Shown here one piece after another: positions 11,583 to 41,478 of a DNA stretch of 58,460 bases. Numbering within the stretch: position 1 is the stretch's first letter; every line of letters begins with the position of its first letter. A model generated the notes under the pieces. It had not been told where the DNA came from and ran no database searches. It saw nothing but the letters and a program-made list of their open reading frames with translations. The position numbers were made by a program, and so were the translations under genes. Source of the DNA: a virus (lineage: Duplodnaviria > Caudoviricetes); the IMG/VR virus record IMGVR_UViG_3300028840_003750, positions 1-58,460 of that record; one strand, 5' to 3'.

Positions 11583-11584
11583 CG

Positions 11585-11746: not shown

Positions 11747-11755
11747 TGTTTTCTC

Positions 11756-15666: not shown

Positions 15667-15668
15667 AG

Positions 15669-19015: not shown

Positions 19016-19016
19016 G

Positions 19017-19700: not shown

Positions 19701-20440
19701 TGCTGCTGTGCCCTGTAAAGATCAATCCACTGAATGGCGCCATCAGAGATTCTCTTTACGTACAGATTGCAATAGCTAAACAGCTCTCTGATCTTTTGCG
19801 TTGTTATTGATCCTGCTCCAACCTCATCTATACCAAGCTGAGTACGCTGTAAAAGCACAGTCCCGCTATAGCTTTCAGTAAAGGTGCTAGGCTTTTGCCT
19901 GATCGATAGGTATTGCTTTGATAGAGTGTCTGTTTTTTGCTTCAGATACCAGTGATACTCATTTGCCCCAAAGGCAGAGTCAGCTGCTCCGCTATTGATC
20001 GATACCTCAATCTCTGTACCATCGTATGGCTTTGGTATCCCGCTAAAGCCAGTATCAAAGCCACCGCTACGAACAAGATTTATTATTGGATGAAACTCAG
20101 CAGGGTAGCTTTCAACTTCATCAGCGTCACGATATATACTAGCCAATACAGAGGCTACAGTTTCGGCTTGCAGTGTCTCATTGTAAGATAAGGTTATCAA
20201 CAATGGCTGGACACTAGCTATGGTATACCTTCCACTGTTGATGGGCGCATTGATCACATCCAGCCTCATGTCGGCTAGGTGCCCATCAGCTGTGAAGTCT
20301 CCTGCTCCCTGCGATATCGTTGCTGGTGGACCAGGCGCATAGGTAAACGTGCCAGCTGACTGACCATATAGCTGGTTGCTCGTGGCGCCACCTATCCCGA
20401 ACAGATATCGGAACTGTGACCATGTAGGGATTACAGCCAT
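19697..20440 (-). CDS. Putative virion protein
   Basis: Between hub and spike; ATGA coupling. Confidence 0.6.
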   Translation of the reverse strand: MAVIPTWSQFRYLFGIGGATSNQLYGQSAGTFTYAPGPPATISQGAGDFTADGHLADMRLDVINAPINSGRYTIASVQPLLITLSYNETLQAETVASVLASIYRDADEVESYPAEFHPIINLVRSGGFDTGFSGIPKPYDGTEIEVSINSGAADSAFGANEYHWYLKQKTDTLSKQYLSIRQKPSTFTESYSGTVLLQRTQLGIDEVGAGSITTQKIRELFSYCNLYVKRISDGAIQWIDLYRAQQQ

Positions 20441-20477
20441 GCTTGACAGGTGCTAGTAGGTGCTAGTAGGTGTGCTA

Positions 20478-20493
20478 TGTTTCACGTGAAACG
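20478..20493. promoter_or_regulatory. parS-like site overlapping an antisense promoter
   Basis: TGTTTCACGTGAAACG overlapping tgcTATGTT and the GGAGGA RBS. Confidence 0.8.
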
Positions 20494-20499
20494 GAGGAG

Positions 20500-20799
20500 A
20501 TGATGAACGCTACAATCGCTAATTCAGCCGTAATCCCTGAAACCATTACTGAACCTATTCGGGTTGAGATTATCGGGGAACCAAATCCCTTGCTGCCTAT
20601 CAGACCGATGCGGCGACACGGTAATTGGCAGGTTGAGATAGAACCATGTAAGCAGTCAGAAGATGTTCTTGCTTTACTCCAAGCCCCAATCGGAACGGCC
20701 TACCAGGCTGGCTTCGTTGGGTGGCACCGCGGACAGGTTCTCGCATACGGCGTTAAACCACGAGATGCTGCTGAAGCGTTGCTCGCAAAAGCAGCATGA
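20500..20799 (+). CDS. Antisense cassette A hypothetical protein
   Basis: GGAGGAG RBS; flanked by two parS-like sites. Confidence 0.7.
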   Translation: MMNATIANSAVIPETITEPIRVEIIGEPNPLLPIRPMRRHGNWQVEIEPCKQSEDVLALLQAPIGTAYQAGFVGWHRGQVLAYGVKPRDAAEALLAKAA

Positions 20800-20804
20800 G
20801 CTAA

Positions 20805-20822
20805 ATGTTTCACGTGAAACAT
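20805..20822. promoter_or_regulatory. Perfect parS palindrome
   Basis: ATGTTTCACGTGAAACAT, an 18-bp palindrome containing the consensus TGTTTCACGTGAAACA. Confidence 0.85.
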
Positions 20823-22040
20823 CTATGCCTCACCAAGGATTAGCGAGCCCTTCGGGATGAGCGTCAGCCGAGTCCGCTGGCCGCGTAGGTCAGCGGACTT
20901 AGTGTTTTCCAGGATCCAGAATGGCTCATCGATGTCCTCTTCTGGGATCACAACCCTAGCTGTTGTCCCGGAAGTCCAGATAGCCCCAGTTGAGCTAAGC
21001 ATCCCTTCTACCGCTCCGGTTATCTGAAAGCCGTTTTGTGACCTGGCACCATGCATCGTGGTAGCCATGATAAGTGCACGTTGCCGATCCGATGCGCGCT
21101 TATCGAATTTGTATAACGGTTTGAAAGCTGCACCACCTTCGCTCTTATAGGTATGCCTACCAGCTGGTATTGTCTCTAGCTGCACCTTTGGAAACGGTGA
21201 GCCTTCTGGACGTGGCGCTCCATCAACTATGATGCCAGCTGTAGGGGCGGTGGCGCTCTTTTGGCCTACCTTATCAGCTTCCTTACCTACTAGGACTATT
21301 TCGCTGTATTGCCCATCATTGGTTTCCCTAACCATGGGTGGGGGGTTATTTATAAAGAGATCGCTATTAGGTATTCCTGCAACGTTACTGTGGCAAATTG
21401 TGTATGATGGATCTTGCTGAAAGTCAGGCTTCGCTAACAGCAATCCGCCATTGACGTCTACTATTAGAACTAGCCCAAAGCGTGCATATATCCTAGCAGC
21501 AAAGGCATATGCCTTTTCGCCATCTCCAACCTGAATATCCTTCTTTTTCAGCTCGGTAGTGATAACGTTAGCTTGCTGGTTAGTGATAGCCTTTCCTGTC
21601 ATTGCTGATAGGTTTTCAGCCGCTGCGATTCGTATCTGATCAAACCCATACATCTCAAGAGCAGCTAGCACAGCGTCAGCTACCTGTGTTCTCTCGTTGA
21701 AGTTTCGGGCCAAGTATGGATCAGCGCTTCCCTCAAACGGTGTAACCAGGACAGTCTTTGCCTCAATGCTGTACTCTGGTCCGGTGTTAGGATACACCCG
21801 ATCGGCTGTAGTGATCAGCATCGTTGCTTGTCGCACGCCGTTTAGCTTCAGCGCTACAAGCCGACCCTTAGTTAGCAGTCTTCTAGCCTCGGGACGCTGC
21901 GCCTTGTTCGGCCGCGCTTGGATGCTCAGTGTCTTTAGCGGATCGAGGTAATTATCTCTCCACTCAAAGCGAGTCCACGACGTGACAGAGTTTCCCTCGT
22001 TATCGATCAGCTCGATTGAAACTCTGTTCTTGTCAGTCAT
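20823..22040 (-). CDS. Baseplate hub (Mu gp44/gpP-like)
   Basis: GEKAYAFAARIYARFGL, YSEIVLVG, V.G...GAIWTSG and TRLTLIP. Confidence 0.85.
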   Translation of the reverse strand: MTDKNRVSIELIDNEGNSVTSWTRFEWRDNYLDPLKTLSIQARPNKAQRPEARRLLTKGRLVALKLNGVRQATMLITTADRVYPNTGPEYSIEAKTVLVTPFEGSADPYLARNFNERTQVADAVLAALEMYGFDQIRIAAAENLSAMTGKAITNQQANVITTELKKKDIQVGDGEKAYAFAARIYARFGLVLIVDVNGGLLLAKPDFQQDPSYTICHSNVAGIPNSDLFINNPPPMVRETNDGQYSEIVLVGKEADKVGQKSATAPTAGIIVDGAPRPEGSPFPKVQLETIPAGRHTYKSEGGAAFKPLYKFDKRASDRQRALIMATTMHGARSQNGFQITGAVEGMLSSTGAIWTSGTTARVVIPEEDIDEPFWILENTKSADLRGQRTRLTLIPKGSLILGEA

Positions 22041-22076
22041 TGTTAACCGTGCTATGTTTCACGTGAAACGGAGAAG
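22030..22076 (+). promoter_or_regulatory. Antisense promoter with embedded parS-like site (22055-22070)
   Basis: TTGTCA(22030)-17-TATGTT(22053) with extended TG, TGTTTCACGTGAAACG, then GGAG. Confidence 0.8.
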
Positions 22077-22199
22077 ATGATGAAGACGAAGAGATTTGTA
22101 GAGCTGCCCTGGAAAACCTACAAGCGTATCTTAGCACTCAAGGAAGCAACAGCTGCTGACTCAGCTAAATGTGTAGTCTTGAACGATTGCAGGAGCTAG
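22077..22199 (+). CDS. Cassette B 40-aa ribbon-helix-helix-like microprotein
   Basis: Hand-translated as MMKTKRFVELPWKTYKRILALKEATAADSAKCVVLNDCRS. Confidence 0.5.
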   Translation: MMKTKRFVELPWKTYKRILALKEATAADSAKCVVLNDCRS

Positions 22200-22205
22200 T
22201 TACAA

Positions 22206-22601
22206 ATGCCAAAGCATATATGTCCTGACTGCAAACAGCCAAAGAAAACAGCTAAATCCAAAAGGTGCAGATCGTGTGCTGGAAAGCATCGTAAGGGTAA
22301 ACCTTACAAGGTAGTTAGCTTTACCATTGAACCAGAGCAAGCTACGTGCAACCTTGCATTCAAGCAAAAGCTACCCAAAAACAGGCTATCAAAAAGAGAA
22401 GTGCTACACATGGCTATTGAGCTATCTGGGCTAGCTATAGATCTATGTGATTTTGAATGCTTGGCATTTAGCCCAAGTGTTTCAGATGAGCTTAATGCTC
22501 TTAGGAAATATGTAAAAGCTCGCGCTGCCCGCTATGGTAGAATGCTTTCGTTTGAGCTAGCTCATGAGGTAAACGATGCCACGAAGACGAAAGCTATCTG
22601 A
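22206..22601 (+). CDS. Cassette B zinc-finger protein
   Basis: CPDC...CRSC. Confidence 0.7.
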   Translation: MPKHICPDCKQPKKTAKSKRCRSCAGKHRKGKPYKVVSFTIEPEQATCNLAFKQKLPKNRLSKREVLHMAIELSGLAIDLCDFECLAFSPSVSDELNALRKYVKARAARYGRMLSFELAHEVNDATKTKAI

Positions 22602-22845
22602 GCTTCCAGTAAGGACATCTAGATTTAAGCACACTTGCTGCGTATGTCTCGACGATATCACTACTAGCCAGCGTTATCATGACGGTGGATACTTCAGACG
22701 CTCACATATATGGTGCGCTATCAAGGCTGAAAACGATCACTCAATAGTCAAGAGTAAAGAAGAGATCAATGAGGCAATAAGGCTGAAGTACGATGCTATA
22801 GCAAAGCAGGTTTACGCTAAGCACGATGCTAAGCATAGTACTTGA
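22576..22845 (+). CDS. Cassette B zinc-binding protein
   Basis: CCVC...HIWC; GAGG RBS. Confidence 0.65.
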   Translation: MPRRRKLSELPVRTSRFKHTCCVCLDDITTSQRYHDGGYFRRSHIWCAIKAENDHSIVKSKEEINEAIRLKYDAIAKQVYAKHDAKHST

Positions 22846-23710
22846 GCAATGTTCCAGTAGGAATACCTGGCGAGCTGGCTGCCACAGGATTAAGCTCAAT
22901 AGCCTCCTCTAGGCTCATCCCATACTGACGCGCAAAGGCGTCAAGTGTTGTTGGGTTGACTACAATGAATCCGTTTTGCTTTCGCGCCTTATTACCTAGG
23001 CTTTTAGCCGTGTCGTCAAGGGCAGCCCAGAATTCCGTTAGTGCGTCAATAGCACCCGTGGCTACGAAGCTGTTAACAGCTATGGCAGTGTCAACCATAA
23101 GCTCAACTACTGCCTTTGCCTTGGTAATCAATGATAGCACATTGAGCTGAGCTAGGAATATGGCAGACTGAATAGCCCTGGCCATCTCTTCTAGCGAAAG
23201 CTCGAATGACTCAGAAGGCACCTCGATATCAATAGCTGATGCTGCGGTATCAGCTGCTGCTGCTACTGTAGCCAGGTCAGGTATATTGACGAAAAACTCC
23301 GATTGCTCGGCAGCTGGATCTTCTACATGTTTTTCAAAGTTGATCTGTACAGCTGCTCCAGCCCTATCCTGTGCTGTGATTCTTACGTTTCCACCTTTTA
23401 CAATAGCCTCATAGTTTCCCCTAACCGGATGCTCTAATGGTCCTGGTTTACCGTCAGATAGAATGGCCCACCATTCATTAAAGTGATTGGGGAAAGCGCC
23501 ACTGTATAGAGTGTTGTAGAACAGTAGAGTTATTGGGGTTGGCGGATGTATATCACCTGTATCTTCATGTCCTGCGCCGTCTACGTATGGCCATTCAATA
23601 CGGTTTTGCCTACGTCCAAACTGAAAGCTAATATCAGTATAACGCGAATGTGTAGATCCTCGCCACTTCAATGGCGGCAATCCCTCGATAACATTCCACG
23701 GATCTGTCAT
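22829..23710 (-). CDS. DNA circulation-like protein (Mu gpN) with LysM-like C-terminus
   Basis: WRG, EWPYVDGAGHEDTG, PGPLEHPVRG and ELNP...IPTGTLL. Confidence 0.85.
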   Translation of the reverse strand: MTDPWNVIEGLPPLKWRGSTHSRYTDISFQFGRRQNRIEWPYVDGAGHEDTGDIHPPTPITLLFYNTLYSGAFPNHFNEWWAILSDGKPGPLEHPVRGNYEAIVKGGNVRITAQDRAGAAVQINFEKHVEDPAAEQSEFFVNIPDLATVAAAADTAASAIDIEVPSESFELSLEEMARAIQSAIFLAQLNVLSLITKAKAVVELMVDTAIAVNSFVATGAIDALTEFWAALDDTAKSLGNKARKQNGFIVVNPTTLDAFARQYGMSLEEAIELNPVAASSPGIPTGTLLKYYA

Positions 23711-23712
23711 AG

Positions 23713-25977
23713 CTACAGCGCTTCTGCCAAAGAAGATACATCTGCAAATCGTCTCAATGCTGCTATTGCGGTATCGGCAGTATTTGCAAAAAGCCCAAGC
23801 TTTTGATTGGCTTCATCTGTATCAATGTCAACCATCTTTCCGCCAGGACCTCTTGCAGCCTTCTCTTCTGGCGTAAGATCTCTTTGCCCAATTGTTCTGC
23901 GAGCTGTCTCGGTTTGAGCAAGCTGAGCTATCAATCTCTGCTGCTCAGCTTGCTGCGCTTCGGTTTCACCACCAAAGAAGCTACGTCCAAGAAATCCACT
24001 GACACCAGGTTTCTGTAATGCATATAGACCCCGTCCGGTCATCTCTGCTGTTGTTGGGTCGGCTGCAACACTAGCTGCTATTTGCTTAGCAACTGTCTCG
24101 TTTACCCCTGCAGAGGTAAACCTCTTTACAAATTCCTGCTGTGTTATATCAGACACATCGCCTTTGAATACACCTTCTCTAGCCCCAGCTATCTGTGCCT
24201 CTGCCTTTAACCTTCTTTCACCAAGGGCTACAAGCTCAGCTCTGGCTTCAGGCGCAGCTCTGAAACCGGCTGGCCCACCAACTCGTCTTGTTAATCTCTC
24301 CTCTTCAACCTTTATCTTTTGCAGCTCTCGTTGACCCTCCTTTATTGCCATCTCTGGAGTTTTCGGCTTCTTGGATATGATTCCTAAAGCCTCAAGACCA
24401 TCAACAGCTAATCCTGCAGCTTCAGCCATGGCAGTAAAAGCTCTACCTGCGCCGCTAAAGTCTGTTGTCTCAATGAAACCAGCAATCTGCTGTATCGTAT
24501 CTGTAATAGCTGGTGTAAACTCTGAGTTAACCTGCGCAACAAGAGACTCCCATGCAGCTGTTAAGTTTGCGCTTGTCTGCTGCTGAGCAATACCTAGATC
24601 TTCCTCTATCTCTGTTCTTGCAGCTGATACGTTAGTAACATTGTCGATCTCTTGACGCAAACGCTGCATTGCAGTAGCGGTAGCAGCTGCCTCTTGCTCA
24701 GGTGTTGCCTTACCCTTGAATGGTGCTAGCTTTTCTTGACGTACCTTATTAAATAATGAGATCAGCGGGGAAACAGCACGGATCCCGCGAACGTCAAAGA
24801 TCTTTTGAAGCTGAGGTAGATTGCCCCTTGCGCCACCAATGATCTCAACAAGAAGATCCTGTATGTCCCTAGTCTGAGTCTTGCCCTTGTCTTTGAATAC
24901 TGAGACACCTGTCTCCTTTTTGATCATAGCCTCTTTTGCTACGACCTGCTTAAACATATTTTCAACAGCTGTTGCGGCTTCTTCACCGCTTGGTGTGGCA
25001 CGTCTGGCGATCTGTGTTAGTCCACCAAGTGTAGCTAATCCACCGGTCCCTCTAAGACCAAACCTGGCTGCAGCAGCAGCTATCTTGGGAAACTGAGCGG
25101 CTGCGTCCTCCATCTCAAAGGCGCCACGTTTACCCTGGATAGCCAAAAGAGCTAAAGCGTCTCCCATGTCTTCTACTGACTTAATGTCGAATTTCTCGAA
25201 CATGTCAGCGGCAGCCGAACCTATCGCTTCAAACTCAGTGCCTGTTGCTACAGCTATCTCAGCAAATACCTTCCCATATTCCCTAGCTAGTTCTAGCCTA
25301 CCAGTCTTGGAAACGAAACGCTCCTGAGCAGCTATAACACCACCAGCTTGTGCACCCCTTACATCTTGCGCTATACCCTCAGCCTCACGTCTTAGGGTTC
25401 GAGGATCAACCCTCCCTCCAACGGTGGTACCCTTAATAGCTAGCCTGGTAGCACGGTCCTGCAGCGCTATACCCTGGCGAGCAGCTAGCCCCGCTACACC
25501 GGTAGCGGCCAGCCCGATGGCGCCGATCCCACGGAGCGCCCCGCCAGCAACCCGGCCAGCGATCTGCCGAATCATCCGCGAGCGGGAGCGCTGGCGGCTC
25601 TGCGCTTGGCGCTGCTGTCGCCGGGCAGTGCGCTCTGCCTCCCGCCGAGCACGGCGCTCAGCCCGCAATCTGGCCCGCTCCTGCTGTTTCAGGAGGCGCA
25701 GATGGTGCCGTGCTGCCCGCTGCTGCGCCTGCCGTTGCGCTCGCTCTACACGCCGCACAGAAGCGAGCTGAGCCCGCTCCGTCGCCTTGACGGCCTTGAG
25801 CTGCTCCCGTTGCCGAGCTGCTGCTGCCTTCCGCGCCTCGGCCGCAGCACCACGCCCCATGCCCGTCGATCGCCTGACAGTGCGCTTGGTCCGCTTGGCT
25901 GACTGCTCGATCGAGCGGAACGCTCGACGCACCCCAGCCTGACCAGCTGCGCTGAAAGTGTAGCGGATATCAGGCAT
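23713..25977 (-). CDS. Tail tape measure protein
   Basis: 754-aa Ala-rich helical protein; QGKRGAFEMEDAA and EAATAVEN. Confidence 0.9.
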   Translation of the reverse strand: MPDIRYTFSAAGQAGVRRAFRSIEQSAKRTKRTVRRSTGMGRGAAAEARKAAAARQREQLKAVKATERAQLASVRRVERAQRQAQQRAARHHLRLLKQQERARLRAERRARREAERTARRQQRQAQSRQRSRSRMIRQIAGRVAGGALRGIGAIGLAATGVAGLAARQGIALQDRATRLAIKGTTVGGRVDPRTLRREAEGIAQDVRGAQAGGVIAAQERFVSKTGRLELAREYGKVFAEIAVATGTEFEAIGSAAADMFEKFDIKSVEDMGDALALLAIQGKRGAFEMEDAAAQFPKIAAAAARFGLRGTGGLATLGGLTQIARRATPSGEEAATAVENMFKQVVAKEAMIKKETGVSVFKDKGKTQTRDIQDLLVEIIGGARGNLPQLQKIFDVRGIRAVSPLISLFNKVRQEKLAPFKGKATPEQEAAATATAMQRLRQEIDNVTNVSAARTEIEEDLGIAQQQTSANLTAAWESLVAQVNSEFTPAITDTIQQIAGFIETTDFSGAGRAFTAMAEAAGLAVDGLEALGIISKKPKTPEMAIKEGQRELQKIKVEEERLTRRVGGPAGFRAAPEARAELVALGERRLKAEAQIAGAREGVFKGDVSDITQQEFVKRFTSAGVNETVAKQIAASVAADPTTAEMTGRGLYALQKPGVSGFLGRSFFGGETEAQQAEQQRLIAQLAQTETARRTIGQRDLTPEEKAARGPGGKMVDIDTDEANQKLGLFANTADTAIAALRRFADVSSLAEAL

Positions 25978-25980
25978 ATC

Positions 25981-26007
25981 GTGCTATAGTTTCAAGCGAA
26001 ACGGAGC
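25981..26007 (+). promoter_or_regulatory. Antisense promoter with degenerate parS-like site
   Basis: GTGCTATAGTTTCAAGCGAAACGGAG; 13/16 match to TGTTTCACGTGAAACG. Confidence 0.6.
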
Positions 26008-26011
26008 AATC

Positions 26012-26101
26012 ATGATGGGTTGTAGCTTAGTGCCACAAGGGCTTGTGTGCATACCAAGAGCACCTAACGACGATGGTGTAATCGTAGAGTGTTGGCTCTA
26101 G
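26012..26101 (+). CDS. Cassette C 29-aa micro-ORF
   Basis: GGAG RBS; its TAG stop interlocks with the opposite gene's stop in CTAG (26098-26101). Confidence 0.45.
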   Translation: MMGCSLVPQGLVCIPRAPNDDGVIVECWL

Positions 26102-26457
26102 CGACGTCTACCAGCTCGGCTAGTGATCCGTCGGATCATAGCATCGATATCCATACCTGCTATGATACCGATCTGCGTGAAGTTTGAGAAACCTCTAGCT
26201 TGCACGAAAATCCCATATAGCACGCTAGCGCTTCCCATTGCCAGCTCTACCAGCCACCCATCTCGTGAGTTGCTAAGCTTTTTGGCAGTAGTTGCTTTGC
26301 GTAAGTTGGTTGTACGGTCCTGGTAAGTCTTGGTAGCTAGCTCTTCTGCCGCTGCTGCCTCTGCTATAGCCATTGCCTCAGACTCGATGCTATCGAGATC
26401 TGAAAGCGCAGAAGCAGCATGCTGACTGACATTGTCAGTCTGTCTTACCATTATCAT
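26098..26457 (-). CDS. HK97 gp10-like tail/neck protein
   Basis: YQDRTTNLRK...YGIFVQARG pattern. Confidence 0.45.
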   Translation of the reverse strand: MIMVRQTDNVSQHAASALSDLDSIESEAMAIAEAAAAEELATKTYQDRTTNLRKATTAKKLSNSRDGWLVELAMGSASVLYGIFVQARGFSNFTQIGIIAGMDIDAMIRRITSRAGRRR

Positions 26458-27337
26458 CTTTGGTCACGTCTATGTATTTGTCTTGCAATGCGCAACCTGC
26501 ATGATGATGTGGACCAGGTGTTGACGGATCTGAACATAGACAAGAGCATAATATACGCTCATCGTCTGCCTGGTTATCGATCTCAGGCTCTGGCTTATGC
26601 CAATCACCTACCAGATCCTGACATACCTTTTCCCATCCTTCTTCGCCATTAAGCGCAGCCTTCATGGCATCGACTGCTGCTAGCCGATCTGTATCCCAGC
26701 GCATAGTAAACAGGCATAGAAGATTGGTTAGCACCTCCCTGTTATACATTGCTAGCAACGCTTCTGGCATGTCGGCAATGTCAAATGCCGCCACAAGCTT
26801 TTCTCTTTCTTCGTCAAGATCAAGCTCCTCGGCAAGAGGTAGCCCGAGCATGCGAGCTATAGCCTCATTATAGAGGTTTACCAGCCCGTTAAGTGAAAAC
26901 GTATCAAAAATATCACGCATGAATGTAGGCGTGATAAACGAGCGTTTAGACGGATTTTCTGGATCTCGAGCAGCTCTGAACAGAGCCTGGATTGTTCCCT
27001 CATCTACGGTTACAGCAGGATCCTCTCTGAATGAATCAGAGCCTTTCCCAGCATGCTTAGCCAACGATGCTGTATGAGCATGAGCCGCTACAAGAGCTAG
27101 ATTGTCATCTGTCTTCTTGTTGAGCCTAAAGACAATATCAAGAGGGAAGTCTGTTCCGTCATGATCGACTAAGCTACCTAGTACAGCTGATGCGTCAACC
27201 TTCAGCTCTTTTTGCTTGGCTGAATGCAACGCAGCTGATAGCTTGCTTATATGACGCTCCTCACGCTTTGGGGCACCTGGCTCATCTCTTGAATACTTCT
27301 GTCTAAGCGTGTCCTCAATACCTTGATTGTTTGGCAC
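26435..27337 (-). CDS. Putative tail assembly chaperone
   Basis: Position between tube and tape measure. Confidence 0.5.
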   Translation of the reverse strand: MPNNQGIEDTLRQKYSRDEPGAPKREERHISKLSAALHSAKQKELKVDASAVLGSLVDHDGTDFPLDIVFRLNKKTDDNLALVAAHAHTASLAKHAGKGSDSFREDPAVTVDEGTIQALFRAARDPENPSKRSFITPTFMRDIFDTFSLNGLVNLYNEAIARMLGLPLAEELDLDEEREKLVAAFDIADMPEALLAMYNREVLTNLLCLFTMRWDTDRLAAVDAMKAALNGEEGWEKVCQDLVGDWHKPEPEIDNQADDERILCSCLCSDPSTPGPHHHAGCALQDKYIDVTKDDNGKTD

Positions 27338-27339
27338 TG

Positions 27340-27957
27340 TTATCTCAGTTTCATTGGCCTAGAAAACCTAGGCTTAGGTGGTGGCTTGTGCTTTTCAGAC
27401 AGCTTCATAGCAGCCATAACACATAGCCAATGTCCGTCTGTTAGCTGCTGCTGTGGCAGCCCATAGTATCTATCAGGCTCTGGCGCCCCTGTCCAGCCAT
27501 TTTTGCATTGAGCTAACGACACTGCTTGCTGTACATTGCTGATATGCTCAGCCCCGATCGCAAGAGTCTCGATCCACGCTTCTGAGTCAATTCTGCCGAA
27601 TGTTGGAGATACATCAAGCAACGGTTGAACTACAGCTGAGGCTAGCAGATTGAAGTCTACAGTGTGTAGATCCATTATCTCGCCCAGTGATCCAAACACA
27701 GGGATATCACCCTCATGTAAGCTTAGTACTATAAGCCTTGCCTGAACGATTGAATCTCTGATAACCTTAGCCTCTGAATCGCTTTCGTCAAAAGCCTCCT
27801 CTATCTCGATGCTTGTTAGCCCATAAACGAAAGTTGGGCACCCTGGCCGCACAATACCCGGAAACGGAAGCGAAACAGGTAAGCGCGGCCTAGGTGCCCG
27901 GTTTAGCAACCGGAACAAGCGCTCCGGAGACAGGTGCTGTGGTGGCTGCCGTAGCAC
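27340..27957 (-). CDS. Putative tail assembly chaperone
   Basis: Position; YYGLPQQQLTDGHWL. Confidence 0.5.
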   Translation of the reverse strand: MLRQPPQHLSPERLFRLLNRAPRPRLPVSLPFPGIVRPGCPTFVYGLTSIEIEEAFDESDSEAKVIRDSIVQARLIVLSLHEGDIPVFGSLGEIMDLHTVDFNLLASAVVQPLLDVSPTFGRIDSEAWIETLAIGAEHISNVQQAVSLAQCKNGWTGAPEPDRYYGLPQQQLTDGHWLCVMAAMKLSEKHKPPPKPRFSRPMKLR

Positions 27958-27971
27958 TTGGCTACACTATG

Positions 27972-28352
27972 CTACTCCCACTTGGGAACCTTCCCGACTG
28001 ACTGAAGCTCGTATGCAGCGGTTGTCGCAGTCCCGGTACCACTTGAGATTGTAATAGATCGCACAAGGAATGCAGCGTTGATCTCCTTGGTTGACCCAAT
28101 CTGCTGTACTACAACGTTTAGCTCAGCATACTCAAGCTTTGCTTTTACCAGATCAACCTCCAGACCAAAGGCTGGGTTAATTGCATTAGTGCCACTTATA
28201 CGGCACTTCTGCGGACCAGGGCTAACGCCAGCTGCTCCCTCTACAACAGTATCAACATCCTGATCGTTATCTCCCCATTCAACCTGAGCATCAGTGTTCT
28301 CGGCAAAAAGAACACCTTCGATTGTTATGATTAGCTGAGTATACAGTGCCAT
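27972..28352 (-). CDS. Tail tube protein
   Basis: 126 aa directly after the sheath; VDTVVEGAAGVSPGP. Confidence 0.75.
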   Translation of the reverse strand: MALYTQLIITIEGVLFAENTDAQVEWGDNDQDVDTVVEGAAGVSPGPQKCRISGTNAINPAFGLEVDLVKAKLEYAELNVVVQQIGSTKEINAAFLVRSITISSGTGTATTAAYELQSVGKVPKWE

Positions 28353-28360
28353 AATGACCT

Positions 28361-29929
28361 CTAGTAGCTCGGACCGCCTTCGCCGATCTCAGCTTCCCAT
28401 GAGATTCGATGTAGCACAGCCTGAACGGTACACTTGGTCGGAAAACCACCGCGACCATTATGGTTCACCTGGATAGAATCGATCATCTCTTGCACCCTAT
28501 CAGGTCTAAGCAATGGCCCATCGTAAACCCCAAGCGGGTTATTGCCAGCCATATCCTCAATAAGAAGCTTGAGCATTGAGCGAATATGGCGCGGGATAGA
28601 TGTTCTTGCCGGCGGCGGCTGATTACCAATAGGATCATCTGCAGCATTAGGTTGTTTAGTGGAATCCCATCTCTGGGCAGCAACAGCCCAGAACAGAGTG
28701 ACCACAGAGAAGATATGCCCCTCTCTTGCACGATAATCAGGAAGAAGACTATCGCTCAATGAGCGTGTTAAAACGGTCCTTGTTAGCTGGGGTGTATTGT
28801 TCCCAATAACCCGCATGCTGGAGATACCAGCATTCAGATCTGCCTTTACCTCTGCAGCATTATGACGATCAGACACATTGAAAGGAATTGGAATGCCACT
28901 AGTAACGATTTCGTTACAATTAGCTGCCGGGTATGCAATCTCTCGCTGACGTAGCAATGAGCAGAAGTGTGCCGCAAGCATTGCGGTTGTTAAGTCCGAC
29001 CCTTGCTGTCGAATAGCCCTGGCCTGGACAGTGTTACACTGAGCTGATTGAGTAACAGAAGCACCTTGCGGCTGTGTACACACTAGACCAAAGTGAGCTT
29101 GCTGATCTTTTGCATTCACAGGCAGCAGCTGAGCTTTGAGCATAGCGAGGTACTCGCCAAGCCCGTTATCTGTTGCTGTTAGCGTCGTGCTAGCTGTCTT
29201 GGCAAGCACATGGTAGAACCAATTACCAGTGGCGATATTAGCAATGGCGGCTGACCAATCATCGTCTCCACCACCTGCTGTTATCGTGCTCTTTGCAAGT
29301 GACTGAGTATTACCAGTACCAGATAGCACCTTTATCCGAATGCCATGAGTCGCATCTGCCCCGATGATCTGATCTCCCCTTGGGCCTTTCTGGGCAGCGA
29401 TTACGTCAACCTTCCAGTCAGGTCCAGCGCCATCAATGGCGGCAACAGCTGTTACCTGTAACCTACCCTCATCCCAGCCATTCAGGGCATCCGCCAAACC
29501 CTCAGCAGTAGTCTGCTGATTATCACCATCTTCAGCTGAATATGTTGGGTACTCACTATGGCAATGCAGCTGCCAAGTTGTAGCCTTATCGGATACACCG
29601 CTTACTACTAGCTTTACTGCAGCATTTGCCCCTGCTGACTCAGTTGCAGCACATGCCCAGATTGTCTGATCTTGCGGTTGAGATACCTGTTGCCTATACA
29701 TGGCATACAGCTCTGACCGATCTCCGAATCTAGCACGAGCATCAGCATCATCTCTGATTGGATTGTCTTGATCTACAACATCCAATGGCTCAGAGCCGGC
29801 CGATGTACGGTTGCCAACTAGCAGCACGCCACGCTCCGGGGCTTGTCCAGCGCTTGGACCAATGGCGAAAAGATACTCCCGATAAACACCGGGAGTCGGA
29901 TCAAACGGATCTCTGCCTGTAAGAGTCAT
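28361..29929 (-). CDS. Tail sheath protein (Mu gpL-like)
   Basis: PGVYRE, VLLVGN, FGDRSELYAM, AAQKGPRG and LNAGIS. Confidence 0.9.
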   Translation of the reverse strand: MTLTGRDPFDPTPGVYREYLFAIGPSAGQAPERGVLLVGNRTSAGSEPLDVVDQDNPIRDDADARARFGDRSELYAMYRQQVSQPQDQTIWACAATESAGANAAVKLVVSGVSDKATTWQLHCHSEYPTYSAEDGDNQQTTAEGLADALNGWDEGRLQVTAVAAIDGAGPDWKVDVIAAQKGPRGDQIIGADATHGIRIKVLSGTGNTQSLAKSTITAGGGDDDWSAAIANIATGNWFYHVLAKTASTTLTATDNGLGEYLAMLKAQLLPVNAKDQQAHFGLVCTQPQGASVTQSAQCNTVQARAIRQQGSDLTTAMLAAHFCSLLRQREIAYPAANCNEIVTSGIPIPFNVSDRHNAAEVKADLNAGISSMRVIGNNTPQLTRTVLTRSLSDSLLPDYRAREGHIFSVVTLFWAVAAQRWDSTKQPNAADDPIGNQPPPARTSIPRHIRSMLKLLIEDMAGNNPLGVYDGPLLRPDRVQEMIDSIQVNHNGRGGFPTKCTVQAVLHRISWEAEIGEGGPSY

Positions 29930-29935
29930 TACCTG

Positions 29936-30280
29936 CTACCTCCCACTGCTAGGCGGTGGGCTTGTTTGAGCAATAGAAGCAATAAGCTTTTCATGAGCTT
30001 CATTACGCGTTTTGAAGATTCCTCTTTCAAGTATCTCAAGCTCACCCTGTTTTTCAGCCTTAAGCAAATACCTGTTGTCTACCTTATCGGTAAACTCAGG
30101 GAAAACCTCAGCTACTGGCTCATACAGCTCATGAAGCTTATACCCTTCATAGGTTGGGCTATCATAACCAGTTACCTGGATACCTGGCTTTCGCTTCATA
30201 CCAGCAAAGCGCAATGGCCTACCAGAGGGGTGCATTACAAGATGAGGTGGAATACCCCTCACCAAAAGATATCGCATCAT
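29936..30280 (-). CDS. Small protein upstream of the sheath
   Basis: Coupled ORF; RYLLKAEKQGEL. Confidence 0.6.
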   Translation of the reverse strand: MMRYLLVRGIPPHLVMHPSGRPLRFAGMKRKPGIQVTGYDSPTYEGYKLHELYEPVAEVFPEFTDKVDNRYLLKAEKQGELEILERGIFKTRNEAHEKLIASIAQTSPPPSSGR

Positions 30281-30828
30281 GGTGTCATACTCCCGGCCCT
30301 AAGCAGGTGCCATTGAGTGTCTTGAAAACGGAGATCAACGAACCAAGCCTTAGAAGCTGGAAGCGTTATCAATGAAACACTGGGCCCAGAAGGCGCAACC
30401 TCGGAAAAAATCTCATATGTATAAGCCTCAGTGTCTAGCCTTGTAATAGTCAGCTTTGTCCCATTTTGCACTAATGCAACGTTGGGAGCATCAGCTGTAT
30501 ATGCGCCTATTGTAAGCTGACGATTTGCAGTAAGCGTATTAGCTGGCAAAAAACGAACGAGCTTCTTGTCAGCTCGTATCGTTGCATCTTCATTCGCTAG
30601 ATTATCACCAGCATCATCTTGCTCAACTGGCACCCATCTTCCAGCATTCCCGCCAACATGGTTAAGGATATAGTAGCCATCTGCATAGCTAGCATCGCCT
30701 GGCACCCATTGCCTAAGCAGATTAGGCGCATCTAGCGTGATTGCGTAATGAGGAACAATCGGGCCCGGCCGCGCTGATAGGTTTTCAGCGGTTGGATAAA
30801 TCTCAATCGTGCGTATTGAAAGCGCCAT
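30277..30828 (-). CDS. Putative virion decoration/fibre protein
   Basis: WVPGD...DG..I......GRW motif shared with 40105-41445. Confidence 0.55.
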   Translation of the reverse strand: MALSIRTIEIYPTAENLSARPGPIVPHYAITLDAPNLLRQWVPGDASYADGYYILNHVGGNAGRWVPVEQDDAGDNLANEDATIRADKKLVRFLPANTLTANRQLTIGAYTADAPNVALVQNGTKLTITRLDTEAYTYEIFSEVAPSGPSVSLITLPASKAWFVDLRFQDTQWHLLRAGSMTP

Positions 30829-30834
30829 CGAAAC

Positions 30835-30863
30835 GTGCTAGGCTAGAAGGTGAAACGGAGGAA
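30835..30863 (+). promoter_or_regulatory. Antisense promoter/RBS of cassette D
   Basis: GTGCTAGGCTAGAAGGTGAAACGGAGGA. Confidence 0.65.
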
Positions 30864-30866
30864 GAT

Positions 30867-31151
30867 ATGAGCGGTTTCCAATGCTACTGCTTCAGTCATG
30901 CTGACAAGGTTATAGCTGAAGGATTAGATGATGCTTGGACTATATGGTGCGAGCATACAGGCGAGTCAAAAGAAGACTATGTTGAATACGATAACCCTCG
31001 TCTAATGAGACTAGATGAAAAGATAACCATCTGGTGCGAAAAGGATGGTAACATATCAGAGCCTGGAAATGGCGCCATACCTCTTAGCTATACTGTTGCT
31101 TTTTGGATAGCTATGGAAGGTCGTGGTTTTCTTTGCTCAACAGAGTGGTAG
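30867..31151 (+). CDS. Cassette D hypothetical protein
   Basis: GGAGGA RBS; start refined to ATG 30867. Confidence 0.75.
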   Translation: MSGFQCYCFSHADKVIAEGLDDAWTIWCEHTGESKEDYVEYDNPRLMRLDEKITIWCEKDGNISEPGNGAIPLSYTVAFWIAMEGRGFLCSTEW

Positions 31152-31153
31152 CT

Positions 31154-31459
31154 ATGCTTGAACCAGTTAAGACCATCCTGGTAGTAAAAGACAATGCTTC
31201 ACCGCAGCTATGCAGGGTCAGTGAAGCTAGCTTTCGTTTACATACCAGGTTTAGACTTGCCGATGAGGCTAGAGAGTATAGACAATACCTAGGTGAGCTT
31301 TTCGGATGGGTACCAGAAACAACCTACATATGCTCAATATGTGGGAACGAGAAAGACAGGGCGATGGGCTATTATGGCCCAAGTAATACATGCGTAAACT
31401 GCTATGTAGCTAACGGGAAAAGATACCCAAACAGGTGGATAGATCCATTCAAAGACTAG
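31154..31459 (+). CDS. Cassette D zinc-finger protein
   Basis: CSIC...CVNC; its stop interlocks with the opposite gene in CTAG (31456-31459). Confidence 0.7.
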   Translation: MLEPVKTILVVKDNASPQLCRVSEASFRLHTRFRLADEAREYRQYLGELFGWVPETTYICSICGNEKDRAMGYYGPSNTCVNCYVANGKRYPNRWIDPFKD

Positions 31460-32217
31460 ATCCCATCTGGTGTGTAGCTACCGTCTGGATAGGTAAACGT
31501 CCTTTCCAGCACAGGTACGCCGTCATGACAGATGCTCACAGGGCTATCTGCTATTGGTATAGTTACGCTTGATTGTTTGGTTAGCTCTTCTACCTCAACG
31601 ATGGCTACCAGAGCAGGATAGTCCTTGCCGCTTGCTTTCGCTCCAACCTTAAAGACAGAAGCGTCATCAATACCGATCCGTCTAATTGCTCTGCTACCTA
31701 TGAAGCGAAAGTCCCATGTAGCTGTATCCCCTATCAGATCTTTGACATAGGTTCCAGTTGCTACTCCGTCATACCCAGACTGTGGGAATGTCGGGTGAAA
31801 CCCATCGTTGCTACACTGTGTTAGCACAGAAGCAACAGCATTCAATAGTCCTGTTCGAAGCTCCAACGCTGCACGACTAGGCAGCTCTTCAGCAATATAC
31901 ATTAGATGTATATTGCGTAGTCGTCGCACTATGAACGTGGTGAACAGTGACTCTGTGCTTTGACCTGGCCACCATATATACAGCGATGGGACAGGTCGCT
32001 TAACCTTATGTCCCCTTGGCTCGTCAGGATCGAAGTCGAAGGCATGTTTGCTAGGAACAGCTTGTGATGATGTGCCGTTGAGCTTGGCTAGCTTGGTGTT
32101 TAGGTTTGCATTGAGACAATGAGCATAGAAGTCCAGCAGCAAAGAGACAACAGGATCTGATAGCTTCTCCTGTGCTCTCCCAGCTGGTATCGGTAGCTCT
32201 AATGCCCCTACGCTCAT
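31456..32217 (-). CDS. Putative tail terminator/neck protein
   Basis: Position upstream of the sheath; PSLYIWW. Confidence 0.5.
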   Translation of the reverse strand: MSVGALELPIPAGRAQEKLSDPVVSLLLDFYAHCLNANLNTKLAKLNGTSSQAVPSKHAFDFDPDEPRGHKVKRPVPSLYIWWPGQSTESLFTTFIVRRLRNIHLMYIAEELPSRAALELRTGLLNAVASVLTQCSNDGFHPTFPQSGYDGVATGTYVKDLIGDTATWDFRFIGSRAIRRIGIDDASVFKVGAKASGKDYPALVAIVEVEELTKQSSVTIPIADSPVSICHDGVPVLERTFTYPDGSYTPDGI

Positions 32218-32960
32218 ATTGTGCTTACTACGGCTCCGTCTGATACTCTACGCCAGTTTGAGCTATCACTAGTAGCCATAGTGCGGCCACCTACATCGTC
32301 TGTTACTATGCAAGTCTGACCAGACGGAGATGGGCTCTTGTAGCCTGGGTTTGAGACATTTGTAAGCTCATCGACTGTGTACGCAGTGATCTGTAATGTC
32401 CCGTCCCTTACCTCTAGACCACGAGCGATAACACGCGACCCGTCAGTTGTAGCAATCTGAACTGCAGGGTATAGCTGAAGCCTTCTAGCTGATGCACTAA
32501 ACCTTACATACGGACTATCAGCGTCATCATGAATACCTATAGTCCCACGAAACGTTAAGTTGCTATCACGAGCTGAAGCTAGGTTATGCCAAAATGATAG
32601 TGGACGCTTCTTTATACCATTATAGAAGCAATCTATGTGGATCTCCTGCTGCTCCTGATCTATTCCGTCAGGAGGCGGTGGACTGTAATAGCTACCCTCA
32701 ATAGCAATAGCTAAAGCTGGGATAGAAGGACTAATCGGATTGGTATTGTTGTCAATGTTAACACCAAACCATCCGACAGTGTTCTTTTTGAATGTAGGCG
32801 CTGCAGGATCATTGTCGAATGTCCTAAACAGCACTCGTCCAGTATAGTCACCAGCATCATAGATGTGAGAGCTATACTGATCACCAGTATCAGGTGCTAT
32901 ACCCATCAGAAGATTCCTTAGTCTTTTAAAAAGACCTAGCCCTAGCCCAAGTCTGCTCAT
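32214..32960 (-). CDS. Putative head/collar fibre protein
   Basis: N-terminal LGLGLGL; C-terminal YTVDEL...TMATSDSSNWRRVSDG. Confidence 0.55.
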   Translation of the reverse strand: MSRLGLGLGLFKRLRNLLMGIAPDTGDQYSSHIYDAGDYTGRVLFRTFDNDPAAPTFKKNTVGWFGVNIDNNTNPISPSIPALAIAIEGSYYSPPPPDGIDQEQQEIHIDCFYNGIKKRPLSFWHNLASARDSNLTFRGTIGIHDDADSPYVRFSASARRLQLYPAVQIATTDGSRVIARGLEVRDGTLQITAYTVDELTNVSNPGYKSPSPSGQTCIVTDDVGGRTMATSDSSNWRRVSDGAVVSTI

Positions 32961-33610
32961 TAGATGTAGACTGTAATAGGATCGGAAGTGGTTCCAGGAC
33001 CATACACACGCCCAAAAAACACATCATGTCTCTCCCCGTCAGCTCCTGGCAGTAATCCCCTATACCTGCTAAGCACGGTAGGGTCTGAGGGCACATCTCC
33101 GTCATAACCTAGGCGGATGTTACCAGTTGAGCCATGTCGGATCTGTCTCCCAAAGGCAGGTCTAGCCCTTCCAACATCAGCAAAGTCGAGCATGATATCA
33201 CGAACACCAAACTCAAAAGACCCGCCACCAAGCAGCTGAGCAGGTACGACTAACTTAGTAGGCTTCAATATACCTTGCTCAATCCCACATGACACTGTCT
33301 CTCCGCCGTCTGTATCTGTTAGGTATACTCTAGCGGTTGCTTCCACCCCATCCCAGTTAGGTCCTGTAAAAAAGATTGGATCAGTCGTGTTATACCTACC
33401 AGCTGCTACAGACGTTGTAACAGATACACCACGAGGTAGGCGCCAATCATCAAGAGACATTAGCGCTCCGTTAAGAGCTGCCCCGGTATACTCCTGCTCT
33501 GACGTGCTTGTCCCGATGCTTGTCTTGATCCCATTAGGATCTACGATCTCGGAAAGCGCAAACACATGCGCCATCTTGGCCGGATATAGTTTCTCTGTAG
33601 CAGCTCCCAT
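32960..33610 (-). CDS. Putative virion structural protein
   Basis: Coupled in the head-neck region. Confidence 0.55.
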   Translation of the reverse strand: MGAATEKLYPAKMAHVFALSEIVDPNGIKTSIGTSTSEQEYTGAALNGALMSLDDWRLPRGVSVTTSVAAGRYNTTDPIFFTGPNWDGVEATARVYLTDTDGGETVSCGIEQGILKPTKLVVPAQLLGGGSFEFGVRDIMLDFADVGRARPAFGRQIRHGSTGNIRLGYDGDVPSDPTVLSRYRGLLPGADGERHDVFFGRVYGPGTTSDPITVYI

Positions 33611-34071
33611 TAGAACACACCTCCGGCGAAAGTCATACGTTGCTCTTGCTCTTCATCATTCGGATCTGCAGGGTAAACCTCAGCACCCTCATTGTATGCC
33701 TGACTCTGCTCTTGATCAAGCTCGATCTCCCTTAGCCTGAGATCCATGAGCTTTTCCTTTAGCTCTTCTTTTCGCTTATCCCATCCGCCTCTTGTGTACT
33801 CAGGATGCCGTCTACCCATACGGATCTCAAATGCATCCAGGCATACTGTTACCAGATCTCTGGGCATAGGATCTAGTGCTCTGATCTTTGCGATAGAGTC
33901 TGCCCCATATGTCTTACGAAGCTGTGTCTCTACGTCAAGCCCTTCAGCATCATCAATGAACGCATTAACATTGTCTTTCCAATGCCCATCCTGCTCATCG
34001 TCGAAAACGTCTAGCATCAGCTCACGAGTGATTCGACGTTTCACGTTTTCGATGTTGATGTAATAGCCCAT
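33610..34071 (-). CDS. Head-tail adaptor (Mu gp36/DUF1320-like)
   Basis: YYINIENV, FIDDAE..VETQLRKTY, PRDLVTVCLD and LMDLRLREIELD. Confidence 0.7.
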   Translation of the reverse strand: MGYYINIENVKRRITRELMLDVFDDEQDGHWKDNVNAFIDDAEGLDVETQLRKTYGADSIAKIRALDPMPRDLVTVCLDAFEIRMGRRHPEYTRGGWDKRKEELKEKLMDLRLREIELDQEQSQAYNEGAEVYPADPNDEEQEQRMTFAGGVF

Positions 34072-34073
34072 TC

Positions 34074-34101
34074 GTGTTATGTTTCACGTGAAACGGAGGA
34101 G
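34074..34101 (+). promoter_or_regulatory. Antisense promoter with embedded parS-like site (34080-34095)
   Basis: GTGTTATGTTTCACGTGAAACGGAGGAG. Confidence 0.8.
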
Positions 34102-34104
34102 ATA

Positions 34105-34245
34105 ATGAAAGTTCTAGCTTCGATCCACACACCGCAAAATGAGTCTAGGGAGACACCAGATCCTGAGCTATTAAGGCCATTGCTTTGGAATGCGAAAAGA
34201 TCCCACGATAGACGAAAAAAGGATGGGATTTATAACCACCGCTAG
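34105..34245 (+). CDS. Cassette E 46-aa micro-ORF
   Basis: Hand-translated as MKVLASIHTPQNESRETPDPELLRPLLWNAKR..., after GGAGGAG. Confidence 0.45.
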   Translation: MKVLASIHTPQNESRETPDPELLRPLLWNAKRSHDRRKKDGIYNHR

Positions 34246-34311
34246 GACGGGTGTTTATGGTGTCAACTTGTTCCAAGAGAATGGCAAAGATGGTTTCTTG
34301 GAACTAGCTAG

Positions 34312-34539
34312 CTATGCAGCAGCCCAACCTTCCCAGGTAAACCCTTCCTCGATCAGCTCGTCTAGCATTCCCTCTGGGAAGCTACGAGTCTGACCTTGGA
34401 TAACGAATACCTCTGTCCCATCTTGTAGCTCTGTCTCGTATGGTCCTGGTCCTGACCAATGTAATCGCACATAGTGCTCGCCCTTGACCTTTGGCCTACC
34501 AGGATACTTTTTCGGATCTGCTTTCTTGAATTCAGGCAT
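34312..34539 (-). CDS. Small protein downstream of the capsid gene
   Basis: GAGGG RBS; 75 aa. Confidence 0.65.
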   Translation of the reverse strand: MPEFKKADPKKYPGRPKVKGEHYVRLHWSGPGPYETELQDGTEVFVIQGQTRSFPEGMLDELIEEGFTWEGWAAA

Positions 34540-34565
34540 TGCTTCCGTTCCCTCGATATGGTGCC

Positions 34566-34617
34566 TAGCGCTGGCGGTAGCTAAATGTCTCTGATAACAT
34601 GCTACCGCCTAGCGCTA
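34566..34617 (-). terminator. Long hairpin after the major capsid gene (attenuator or processing site)
   Basis: TAGCGCTGGCGGTAGC / GCTACCGCCTAGCGCTA inverted repeat; no clear U-tract. Confidence 0.5.
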
Positions 34618-34630
34618 TATAGCACAATCT

Positions 34631-35938
34631 CTAGCCGATGGGCGTCTCGTAGAGATAGCCACAATCGTTACAGATAACGATCTCTACCTCGTTGGTAGCT
34701 ACCTTGACGTAGAACACCCCAGCTGTTCCCTTGCGCCCATCAAACCACTGTGTGGTAATGATACCATCCTGTGAGAATTGTACATTGGGAGCACCGGCCA
34801 TTGTCCACCGTAGGAATGCACAGAAGAAAGCATTCTTCCTGGTAGCCTGCCCAACTGGCACACGGAGCAAGAACCACTTATCAGGCCAGATGCGCTGATA
34901 GGTGGCCGTCTTTGCCTCATTGCCAGTTGCCTCACGCGCCTCACCGATAACGTATCGATCAGCTCTAAGGAACTGAGCAATCATGTCAGGTGTTGCAAGC
35001 CCTGGCGAGCTGCCATTGTATTGGAACAGCCCAAGCATCTGCGGATGACGTGATAGGACATGATACACAGCCAACGAGCTACCCATGACAAGCTCGGTTG
35101 GTCCAATGCCTTCCCAAACCGCAGCACGGGCATCCTGCATATTCTTGATAGGATATCCGCCACCAGCACTATCCCAGCGATTAGCAGCAGCAATCGGCGT
35201 TGTATTTGTAGACGCATAGTTGCTAGCAGTAGTAACGAGATCTCTGGTTCGCTGCTCACGACGAAGGTCCAGAGTCTGGAGAACGGTTTCCTGATCGGTA
35301 GCAAGCACGTCATAGGGAGCGTCAGCATTGGCTACATCTTCACCATAAGACTTAGCCTTATGGCCCCTACCCTCGGTAGTAAAGAGCCGATTCCCGATGT
35401 CCCATTCAACCTCATTGGCATCGCCACCCTTACCAAGAGCATCATCAGGAGCCTGAAGAGCATTTCGCTTGCTCCAATCAGGGATCTTGTCTGTCTGCTT
35501 TGGCACTGGAACAACAGCGCAAAGCATAGGCCAGATATGCGACTGATTAGCATAGGCAACAGAAAGATTCGTCAGCAGCTGATCATGGTGCAGATTACCA
35601 GCAGTAATTACACCCTTCTCATGCGATGCACAGATATCGCTATACCACTTCTGAGCATCAAGGATCTTTCGCACATTACGTTTTGATCCGCGACCATGCG
35701 CGAGATCCTTTAGTACAGCGAGCTTGTGACGATACAGCTCTTCTTGTCGTTCTGCGTTAGGATTGCGGGTGTACTTGCTAAGAAGCGACCCTGCATTCTG
35801 TGGCAATCCTTTGCGTCCAAGACCACCATTGATCAGATCTGCGATCTCAGACATCTGTGCATCAGACAGCTGGATATACTCCTGACCAGTGATCGGATGT
35901 CGCTGGATACCACCTTGAATTCTAGGATTAGGAGACAT
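34631..35938 (-). CDS. Major capsid protein
   Basis: LLTNLSVAYAN, VPVPKQ, LRREQR, WDSAGGGYPIKNM and DCGYLYE; position. Confidence 0.85.
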   Translation of the reverse strand: MSPNPRIQGGIQRHPITGQEYIQLSDAQMSEIADLINGGLGRKGLPQNAGSLLSKYTRNPNAERQEELYRHKLAVLKDLAHGRGSKRNVRKILDAQKWYSDICASHEKGVITAGNLHHDQLLTNLSVAYANQSHIWPMLCAVVPVPKQTDKIPDWSKRNALQAPDDALGKGGDANEVEWDIGNRLFTTEGRGHKAKSYGEDVANADAPYDVLATDQETVLQTLDLRREQRTRDLVTTASNYASTNTTPIAAANRWDSAGGGYPIKNMQDARAAVWEGIGPTELVMGSSLAVYHVLSRHPQMLGLFQYNGSSPGLATPDMIAQFLRADRYVIGEAREATGNEAKTATYQRIWPDKWFLLRVPVGQATRKNAFFCAFLRWTMAGAPNVQFSQDGIITTQWFDGRKGTAGVFYVKVATNEVEIVICNDCGYLYETPIG

Positions 35939-35964
35939 TGTATTCTTTCTCTCTTTCCTTGCTG

Positions 35965-36390: not shown

Positions 36391-36418
36391 AATCTAATAT
36401 CTCCTATACCAAGTCTAC

Positions 36419-37849: not shown

Positions 37850-37903
37850 GATGAACTACTGCTCTAACTGCGGCATCCTTTGACTCAAGAAGCTTTCGGA
37901 GAG

Positions 37904-39922: not shown

Positions 39923-39957
39923 CTGCTGTTAGCTCATTTGGCTCAAGTTGACAGTGC

Positions 39958-41445: not shown

Positions 41446-41478
41446 GGCGGGTTTCTTTCTGTCAACTCGTGACAACCT

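Follow-up and report, generated by a model that had tools for sequence, protein, structure and literature searches.

Which protein reads four copies of a host-type chromosome partition site (parS) on the genome of a phage that encodes no ParB, and why do three of these copies lie over the putative promoters of small genes? The question is posed by a tailed virus (Duplodnaviria; Caudoviricetes) represented by IMG/VR record IMGVR_UViG_3300028840_003750. The window, i.e., the whole stretch of DNA analyzed here, is this complete 58,460-bp virus record, which has direct terminal repeats. The palindromes accompany short plus-strand gene cassettes that break into the minus-strand structural operon. 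On balance, although by no great distance, we favor the view that the sites are real docking places for host ParB, which here also cover the −10/+1 region of the cassette promoters.

Four parS-type palindromes lie in intergenic gaps

The palindrome, in the form TGTTTCACGTGAAAC(A/G), is found exactly at 20478, 20806, 22055, and 34080, as stated in the original prediction. Exact matches to TGTTTCACGTGAAACR fall at the same positions (at 20806 on both strands), with none in 100 dinucleotide-preserving shuffles, and GTTTCACGTGAAAC has four exact copies, at 20479, 20807, 22056, and 34081, where chance predicts none. The whole virus record has four copies of the 14-mer core and none of its reversed control. 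Compared with the 16-bp chromosomal parS consensus TGTTNCACGTGAAACA, in the form used in the excerpted text of PMC10197239, one site has no mismatch and three have a single one. By this measure all four match chromosomal-type parS, the ParB/Spo0J site, and the earlier identification of the motif as the broadly conserved chromosomal parS agrees with the consensus.

Palindromes 1 (20478..20493; 15 of 16 positions of the perfect site), 3 (22055..22070), and 4 (34080..34095) are placed over −10/+1 of the candidate promoters of cassettes A, B, and C, respectively. Palindrome 2 is a perfect 16-mer within a perfect 18-bp palindrome, ATGTTTCACGTGAAACAT (20805..20822), which sits between convergent stops and closes cassette A, just as had been described. 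Its flanks hold neither a promoter nor a ribosome binding site (RBS), and the palindrome thus appears to be a unit of its own rather than a by-product of the promoter. The reported intergenic location holds for all four sites, as judged from the flanking open reading frame (ORF) limits, and the gaps are short: a minus-strand start at 20440 and a plus-strand start at 20500 flank site 1, the stops at 20799 and 20823 flank site 2, and sites 3 and 4 occupy the gaps 22040-22077 and 34071-34105, respectively. Three of the sites are gathered within 1.6 kb (20478-22070), with the fourth 12 kb off. The copy at 25988, previously listed as a 13/16 variant, turned out to be weaker than claimed. This decayed sequence (25988..26003) carries two mismatches in the 14-mer core, both within the central CACGTG, which is changed to CAAGCG, and four to the perfect 16-mer; it gives no match at up to three mismatches and does not qualify as parS.

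A promoter and leader module surrounds three of the sites

Alignment of sites 1, 3, and 4 delimits a module of ∼35 bp consisting of GTG(C/T)TAT, GTTTCACGTGAAAC, GGAG(G/A)AGAT, one purine, and ATG. Within it, TG(C/T)TATGTT recurs at 20473, 22050, and 34075 and GGAGRAGAT at 20493, 22070, and 34095; TGnTATGTT reads as an extended −10. The claim that promoter, palindrome, and RBS form one composite of ∼28 bp therefore stands, as an element of ∼28 to 35 bp whose promoter is called by consensus match. Six plus-strand modules can be recognized. Module A (20472..20502) is made up of GTGCTAT, the palindrome, GGAGGAGAT, and ATG; module B (22049..22079) alone has a −35 that passes the scan (TTGTCA at 22030); and module C (34074..34107) has the GTGTTAT variant. 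The palindrome is decayed in module D (25981..26014), which contains the copy at 25988. Module E (30835..30870) has a GTGCTA start and a GTGAAACGGAGGA leader and lacks the left half-site, and module F (41479..41503), which heads the plus-strand block 41519-43509, repeats the 15-mer of 30835 exactly, shares the leader family of module E, and has no palindrome. The occurrence of modules with and without the palindrome suggests that the promoter/leader works as a family independently of it. A Shine-Dalgarno (SD)-like word is present at 35 of 98 gene starts, versus six of the six cassette starts among those.

At sites 1, 3, and 4, RNA folding yields only weak hairpins, no stronger than those of shuffled sequence (z about −0.6 to −0.8) and without a T-run, and the RNA-hairpin reading was dropped for these sites. 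Such weak folding at the three promoter sites argues for a role at the DNA level. Moreover, a transcription start ∼7 nt past the −10 would place the 5′ end of the transcript in the right half of the palindrome, so that the plus-strand mRNA would be devoid of the hairpin. Site 2 folds into a stable extended hairpin (−9.2 and −13.3 kcal/mol; z −2.8 and −3.9), also with no T-run.

The site is widespread on viral contigs that rarely encode ParB

The perfect parS 16-mer is present in at least 119 IMG/VR contigs versus 2 for its reversed control; i.e., it is at least 60-fold commoner than the control across viral contigs. Among the 119 loci listed (L065 to L183), 33 hold two to six copies, over a range of GC content from 0.30 to 0.72. 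A search for ParB_N covered 83 of the 119 loci listed, and the domain was absent from 80 of these 83 parS-bearing records. At an E value of ≤0.01, it was detected in none of the 33 multicopy and 3 of the 50 single-copy records, with 1 above the curated cutoff; of the 21 records with a completeness of at least 90%, 19 have no ParB_N. Proteins of the window phage match only 5 of 124 parS-bearing loci. With so few proteins shared, no common phage-encoded reader is visible, and the only factor common to the surveyed phages would be a conserved host protein of this specificity, i.e., ParB. We know of no other host regulator with palindromic sites that has this half-site order.

The surveyed sites also show a positional preference. 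An SD plus a start codon lies 3 to 45 nt from 53 of 179 distinct sites versus 496 of 3,580 random positions, meaning that parS sites are near gene starts about twice as often as random positions, and many of them display the order parS, SD, ATG. Five more contigs, of unrelated context, contain the exact 21-mer of the module. On one 25-kb viral contig (L007, 2290-2360), an unrelated genome, the 21-mer (TAT, parS, GGAG) is followed by ATG and is embedded in a longer imperfect palindrome. An unrelated 12-kb viral contig (L124, 10500-11470) has five parS copies within 0.9 kb, one of them behind a TGTGCTAGGAT-type −10, and a 149-amino-acid (aa) ORF bracketed by parS, like cassette A.

Host ParB is the most economical candidate reader

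Six-frame hidden Markov model (HMM) searches of the phage returned no ParB_N, no CbiA or AAA_31 (ParA types), no tyrosine integrase, and no rve transposase, and Pfam scans of 103 ORFs yielded no partition or lysogeny family. The ParB_N search does detect the domain in three other viral records. These results bear out the earlier remark that the phage carries no ParA/ParB or integrase, and with no ParB_N in any of the six frames, the locus does not classify as a ParB/KorB operator system with its own reader. They lend no support to the plasmid-like prophage envisaged in the same context: lysogeny and partition genes were not found, and nothing marks such a prophage.

Recruitment of host ParB, as originally proposed, would be the most economical reading because the 16-mer recurs in so many, mostly unrelated contigs, nearly all of the tested records lack ParB_N, and phage phi29 provides a precedent. 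That much of the proposal stands; binding by ParB, along with repression, segregation, or titration, is what we infer from it. In the working model, host ParB would read the four parS sites on the ParB-less phage, whose module (extended −10, parS, a strong SD GGAGGAGAT, and ATG) would drive small orphan cassettes antisense to the late tail/head operon. When bound to such a site, a ParB dimer is expected to cover the region from the −10 to about +8 and could thereby hold the cassette promoter shut. Antisense transcription would then be kept out of the late operon, or cassette expression would be tied to the level of free ParB. Site 2, at the far end of cassette A and 328 bp away, might serve as a second nucleation point, and loading of host ParB would provide the phage DNA with a host-type centromere, as in phi29.

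A broader version of this idea is speculative, and we rate it as rather unlikely. The parS-promoter modules would then be a regulatory cassette of wide distribution, passed from phage to phage, that places accessory genes under host ParB. These genes would be silent while ParB is plentiful and would switch on once replicating phage DNA (with hundreds of new parS copies) titrates ParB or upon a change in the ParB/CTP state of the host, so that ParB would act as a sensor of copy number or cell state for unrelated phages across many bacterial phyla.

The cassettes and their sites are accessory

Relatives of the phage are scarce. Searches of GenBank phages gave no near-identical match, and tblastn with the gpP-like protein gave no match; single-protein locus searches of IMG/VR recovered two short portal relatives only and came up empty for the gpP-like and cassette A proteins. 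A set of 51 related loci was assembled from the two portal relatives plus 43 viral and 6 metagenome-assembled genome loci retrieved with a sheath profile (sheath identity, ≤50%; GC content mostly 58 to 71%). In two distant relatives (L055 and L045), the flanking tail genes are adjacent and the cassette is absent. The sole close relative, L061, came from one metagenome scan and displays 75% nucleotide and 82% protein identity. In L061, the equivalents of positions 20449 and 20822 are directly joined, cassette A is missing, and no palindrome is found at the junction. This comparison covers the cassette A junction, with sites 1 and 2. Low-depth contigs from the two runs holding the window share the cassette-less A joint, and at the junction upstream of the tape measure gene (25813-26111) they have 897 letters versus 297 in the window, i.e., a different insert. 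The A joint and this differing insert together indicate that the cassettes and their parS sites are accessory and exchanged at fixed junctions.

Several of these observations, and others made within the genome, weigh against host ParB docking. The original prediction had looked to relatives for conservation of the full palindrome, which did not emerge: the core was detected at up to two mismatches in none of the 51 related loci, and the closest relative lacks cassette A and the two sites that go with it. For this phage type the sites thus look dispensable, accessory rather than part of the backbone. Loss of the CACGTG core with retention of the −10 and RBS, which that prediction had named as evidence to the contrary, is what modules D, E, and F exhibit within the genome itself: all three keep the −10 and the leader, and the intact palindrome is gone. 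Furthermore, the conserved leader already supplies the right half-site and the −10 supplies TGTT, so that the palindrome needs few extra bases beyond these, and the three copies at promoters may have arisen by recent duplication. Counted from the alignment, variation in their flanks (3 of ∼21 positions) versus the core (0 of 14 positions) does not differ significantly. The promoters themselves were called by consensus match alone, and among the three sites only that at 22055 passes the −35/−10 scan (TTGTCA, 17 nt, TATGTT, with TG). Finally, clues to the host are scarce: the closest portal relatives with a name share just 31% identity, and the window was found only in sediment and seawater metagenome runs.

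Alternative explanations for the palindromes

Part of this evidence also fits a role in recombination. The promoter plus palindrome, repeated at the edges of small nonessential genes, could be a recombination and shuffling module of the PeSL (promoter-early stem-loop) type, with site 2 acting as a transcript-end hairpin and the parS identity being incidental or secondary. We consider this possible but not likely, and it can coexist with ParB binding. The excerpted text of PMC2839356 describes PeSLs as cassettes of a promoter and a stem-loop that give rise to indels and mini-circles. Consistently, L061 and the low-depth contigs lack precisely the stretch of cassette A between its bordering repeats, the insert at the cassette D junction differs in length, the flanking tail genes of L055 and L045 are adjacent with no cassette, the cassette genes are orphans, and the site 2 hairpin is stable. 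However, any palindrome would do for such a module, yet this one is exactly parS and far exceeds its control across viral contigs. Three of the sites (1, 3, and 4) form only weak hairpins devoid of T-runs, the palindrome-free L061 junction implies that the insert did not arrive by simple exchange between repeats already in place, and the genome is not of the T4 type.

A position over −10/+1 is also the classic place of an operator, and the phage does encode candidate readers: an XRE-type helix-turn-helix (HTH) protein (4171-4521), an HTH_17 protein (47968-48201), a DnaA_C-domain protein (58004-58354), and PHROG repressor/regulator matches. The palindrome could then be bound by a dimeric phage-encoded regulator, be it the XRE-type, the HTH_17, or an unrecognized protein. 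We find this quite unlikely, as neither a copy of the palindrome nor ordered half-sites occur near the XRE-type, HTH_17, and DnaA_C genes, half-sites elsewhere being scattered singles, and the identical 16-mer is found in many phages with hardly any protein in common with this one. Nor does the cassette A protein look like such a regulator, since its predicted fold has no HTH and no sign of DNA binding and matches no known structure. Neutral duplication of a single promoter module, with no dedicated binder and a merely coincidental likeness to parS, seems to us improbable. It would account for a right half that coincides with the conserved leader and a TGTT that is part of the −10, for the palindrome-less modules, and for a relative without two of the sites, and the scanning of very many windows yields some coincidences. 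In contrast, it leaves aside that site 2, the most perfect palindrome, has no promoter/leader flanks and that the 16-mer exceeds its reversed control so markedly in viral contigs.

Relation to known systems

Bacillus phages phi29 and Nf carry host-type parS read by Spo0J (ParB) (Meijer et al. 2005, as cited in the excerpted text of PMC2731898). According to excerpts of PMC2731898 and PMC9437464, phi29 has five parS sites, which are used via host Spo0J for prespore entrapment. The likeness is evident: both phages lack their own ParB, both have several host-type parS sites (five in phi29, four here), and in both the reader is presumed to be the host's partition protein. In phi29, parS serves prespore entrapment and transcription is governed via Spo0A boxes, whereas three of the sites described here lie over −10/+1 of accessory antisense cassettes. 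The phages differ as well, phi29 being a 19-kb protein-primed podovirus and the present one a 58-kb myovirus with a Mu-type portal. The low SD usage across its gene starts suggests that its host is not Firmicute-like.

Repression by ParB-family proteins is itself familiar. KorB of plasmid RK2 is a ParB-family protein that represses promoters. Chromosomal ParB represses promoters next to parS in Pseudomonas aeruginosa (parS3/parS4; excerpt of 10.1101/151340) and Streptococcus pneumoniae (excerpt of PMC4488948). The common trait is a ParB-family protein at or near a promoter that lowers its output. In the ParB/KorB cases, the protein is that of the replicon or cell that also carries the sites, whereas the sites described here are borne by an invading phage without any such protein.

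PeSLs are mobile regulatory cassettes of T4-type phages (excerpt of PMC2839356; see also PMC4122927). As in that system, small orphan genes have a repeated promoter-plus-palindrome at their borders, and the module marks the limits of indels that distinguish close relatives (cassette A versus L061). PeSL stem-loops are efficient terminators located in hyperplastic early regions of T4-type phages, whereas the palindromes of the window have the parS sequence and fold weakly as RNA at three of four sites. Also unlike PeSLs, the cassettes lie antisense within a late structural operon, alongside a Mu-type portal and tail module.

A moron is a self-contained unit of promoter, gene, and terminator that has inserted between conserved genes. 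Cassette A resembles one: its single gene follows a promoter-like start and precedes a terminator-like hairpin, both called by consensus match, and the closest relative lacks the cassette. To our knowledge, classical morons have not been described as sharing a host-centromere operator. Our literature search, from which supplementary files were outside, found no description of parS over a promoter on a ParB-less phage. The phenomenon has a precedent in phi29, and the promoter-embedded, cassette-bound layout of parS is new.

If host ParB does act at these sites, a universal chromosome segregation protein would also be a transcription switch borrowed by phages, and the use of ParB would extend past the delivery of DNA to spores, as in phi29, to governing accessory genes. 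The survey, in which parS is commoner than its control, viral ParB is rare, and sites are enriched upstream of starts, suggests a general behavior. The single window by itself is a modest gain of a kind already known. The model is testable with model ParB proteins because the same site is used in most bacteria.

Cassette genes and genomic context

The structural operon broken by the cassettes extends over 10744..41475 on the minus strand. It includes a large-terminase candidate (40105-41475; by position, with no family match), the Mu-type portal (38486-39922), the sheath (28361-29929), the tape measure (23713-25977), and the DNA_circ-like (22829-23710), gpP-like (20823-22040), and baseplate J (16193-17710) genes, all on the minus strand. 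Short plus-strand genes interrupt it at 20500-20799, 22077-22845, 26012-26101, 30868-31459, and 34105-34245.

The cassette A insert spans 20450..20819 (approximate limits), the stretch absent from L061 and the low-depth contigs, and its plus-strand gene (20500..20799) encodes a 99-aa protein with two small homologues (54% and 44% identity). The model of this protein has a confident fold (predicted local distance difference test [pLDDT] score of 81), with a best E value of 0.8 in the PDB search, i.e., no match. Two tandem 10-bp repeats at 20450..20469 (plus strand) resemble the −10 part of the module. They directly follow TTGACAG, a word that is also seen at the cassette-less L061 junction and, in addition, upstream of gene 3442-3636. 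Downstream of cassette A, a plus-strand terminator-like hairpin (20870..20900; 13 pairs and a T-rich tail) sits within the 3′ end of the minus-strand baseplate gene. Cassette B (22077..22845) has three plus-strand ORFs (40, 131, and 89 aa) with no family, and its 131-aa protein has no homologue in a set of 5.8 billion proteins. Cassette D is a 29-aa mini-ORF (26012..26101), cassette E (30868..31459) has two ORFs (30868-31151 and 31155-31459), and cassette C has a 46-aa gene with no family (34105..34245), all on the plus strand. None of the cassette proteins tested belongs to a Pfam or PHROG family. An inverted repeat at 34555-34625, in the gap after a 435-aa gene (34631-35938), is a possible minus-strand attenuator or terminator; by position, this gene is likely that of the major capsid protein.

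We considered the word TAGCAC, found upstream of minus-strand genes, as a possible late promoter and dropped it, since it is the complement of the plus-strand −10 and AGCT-rich words are overrepresented genome-wide. Among AGCT-containing words, CAGCTG has 94 sites (6.8 times the expectation from base composition) and GCTAGC has 58 (4.2 times), an excess for which codon bias or a modification/restriction signature are possible causes. Elsewhere in the window, a 481-aa protein (620-2065) combines the N-terminal part of a 5′-3′ exonuclease with an ERF-type single-strand annealing domain, and two tRNA genes, tRNA-Thr(TGT) (49033-49107) and tRNA-Met(CAT) (49404-49474), are both on the minus strand.

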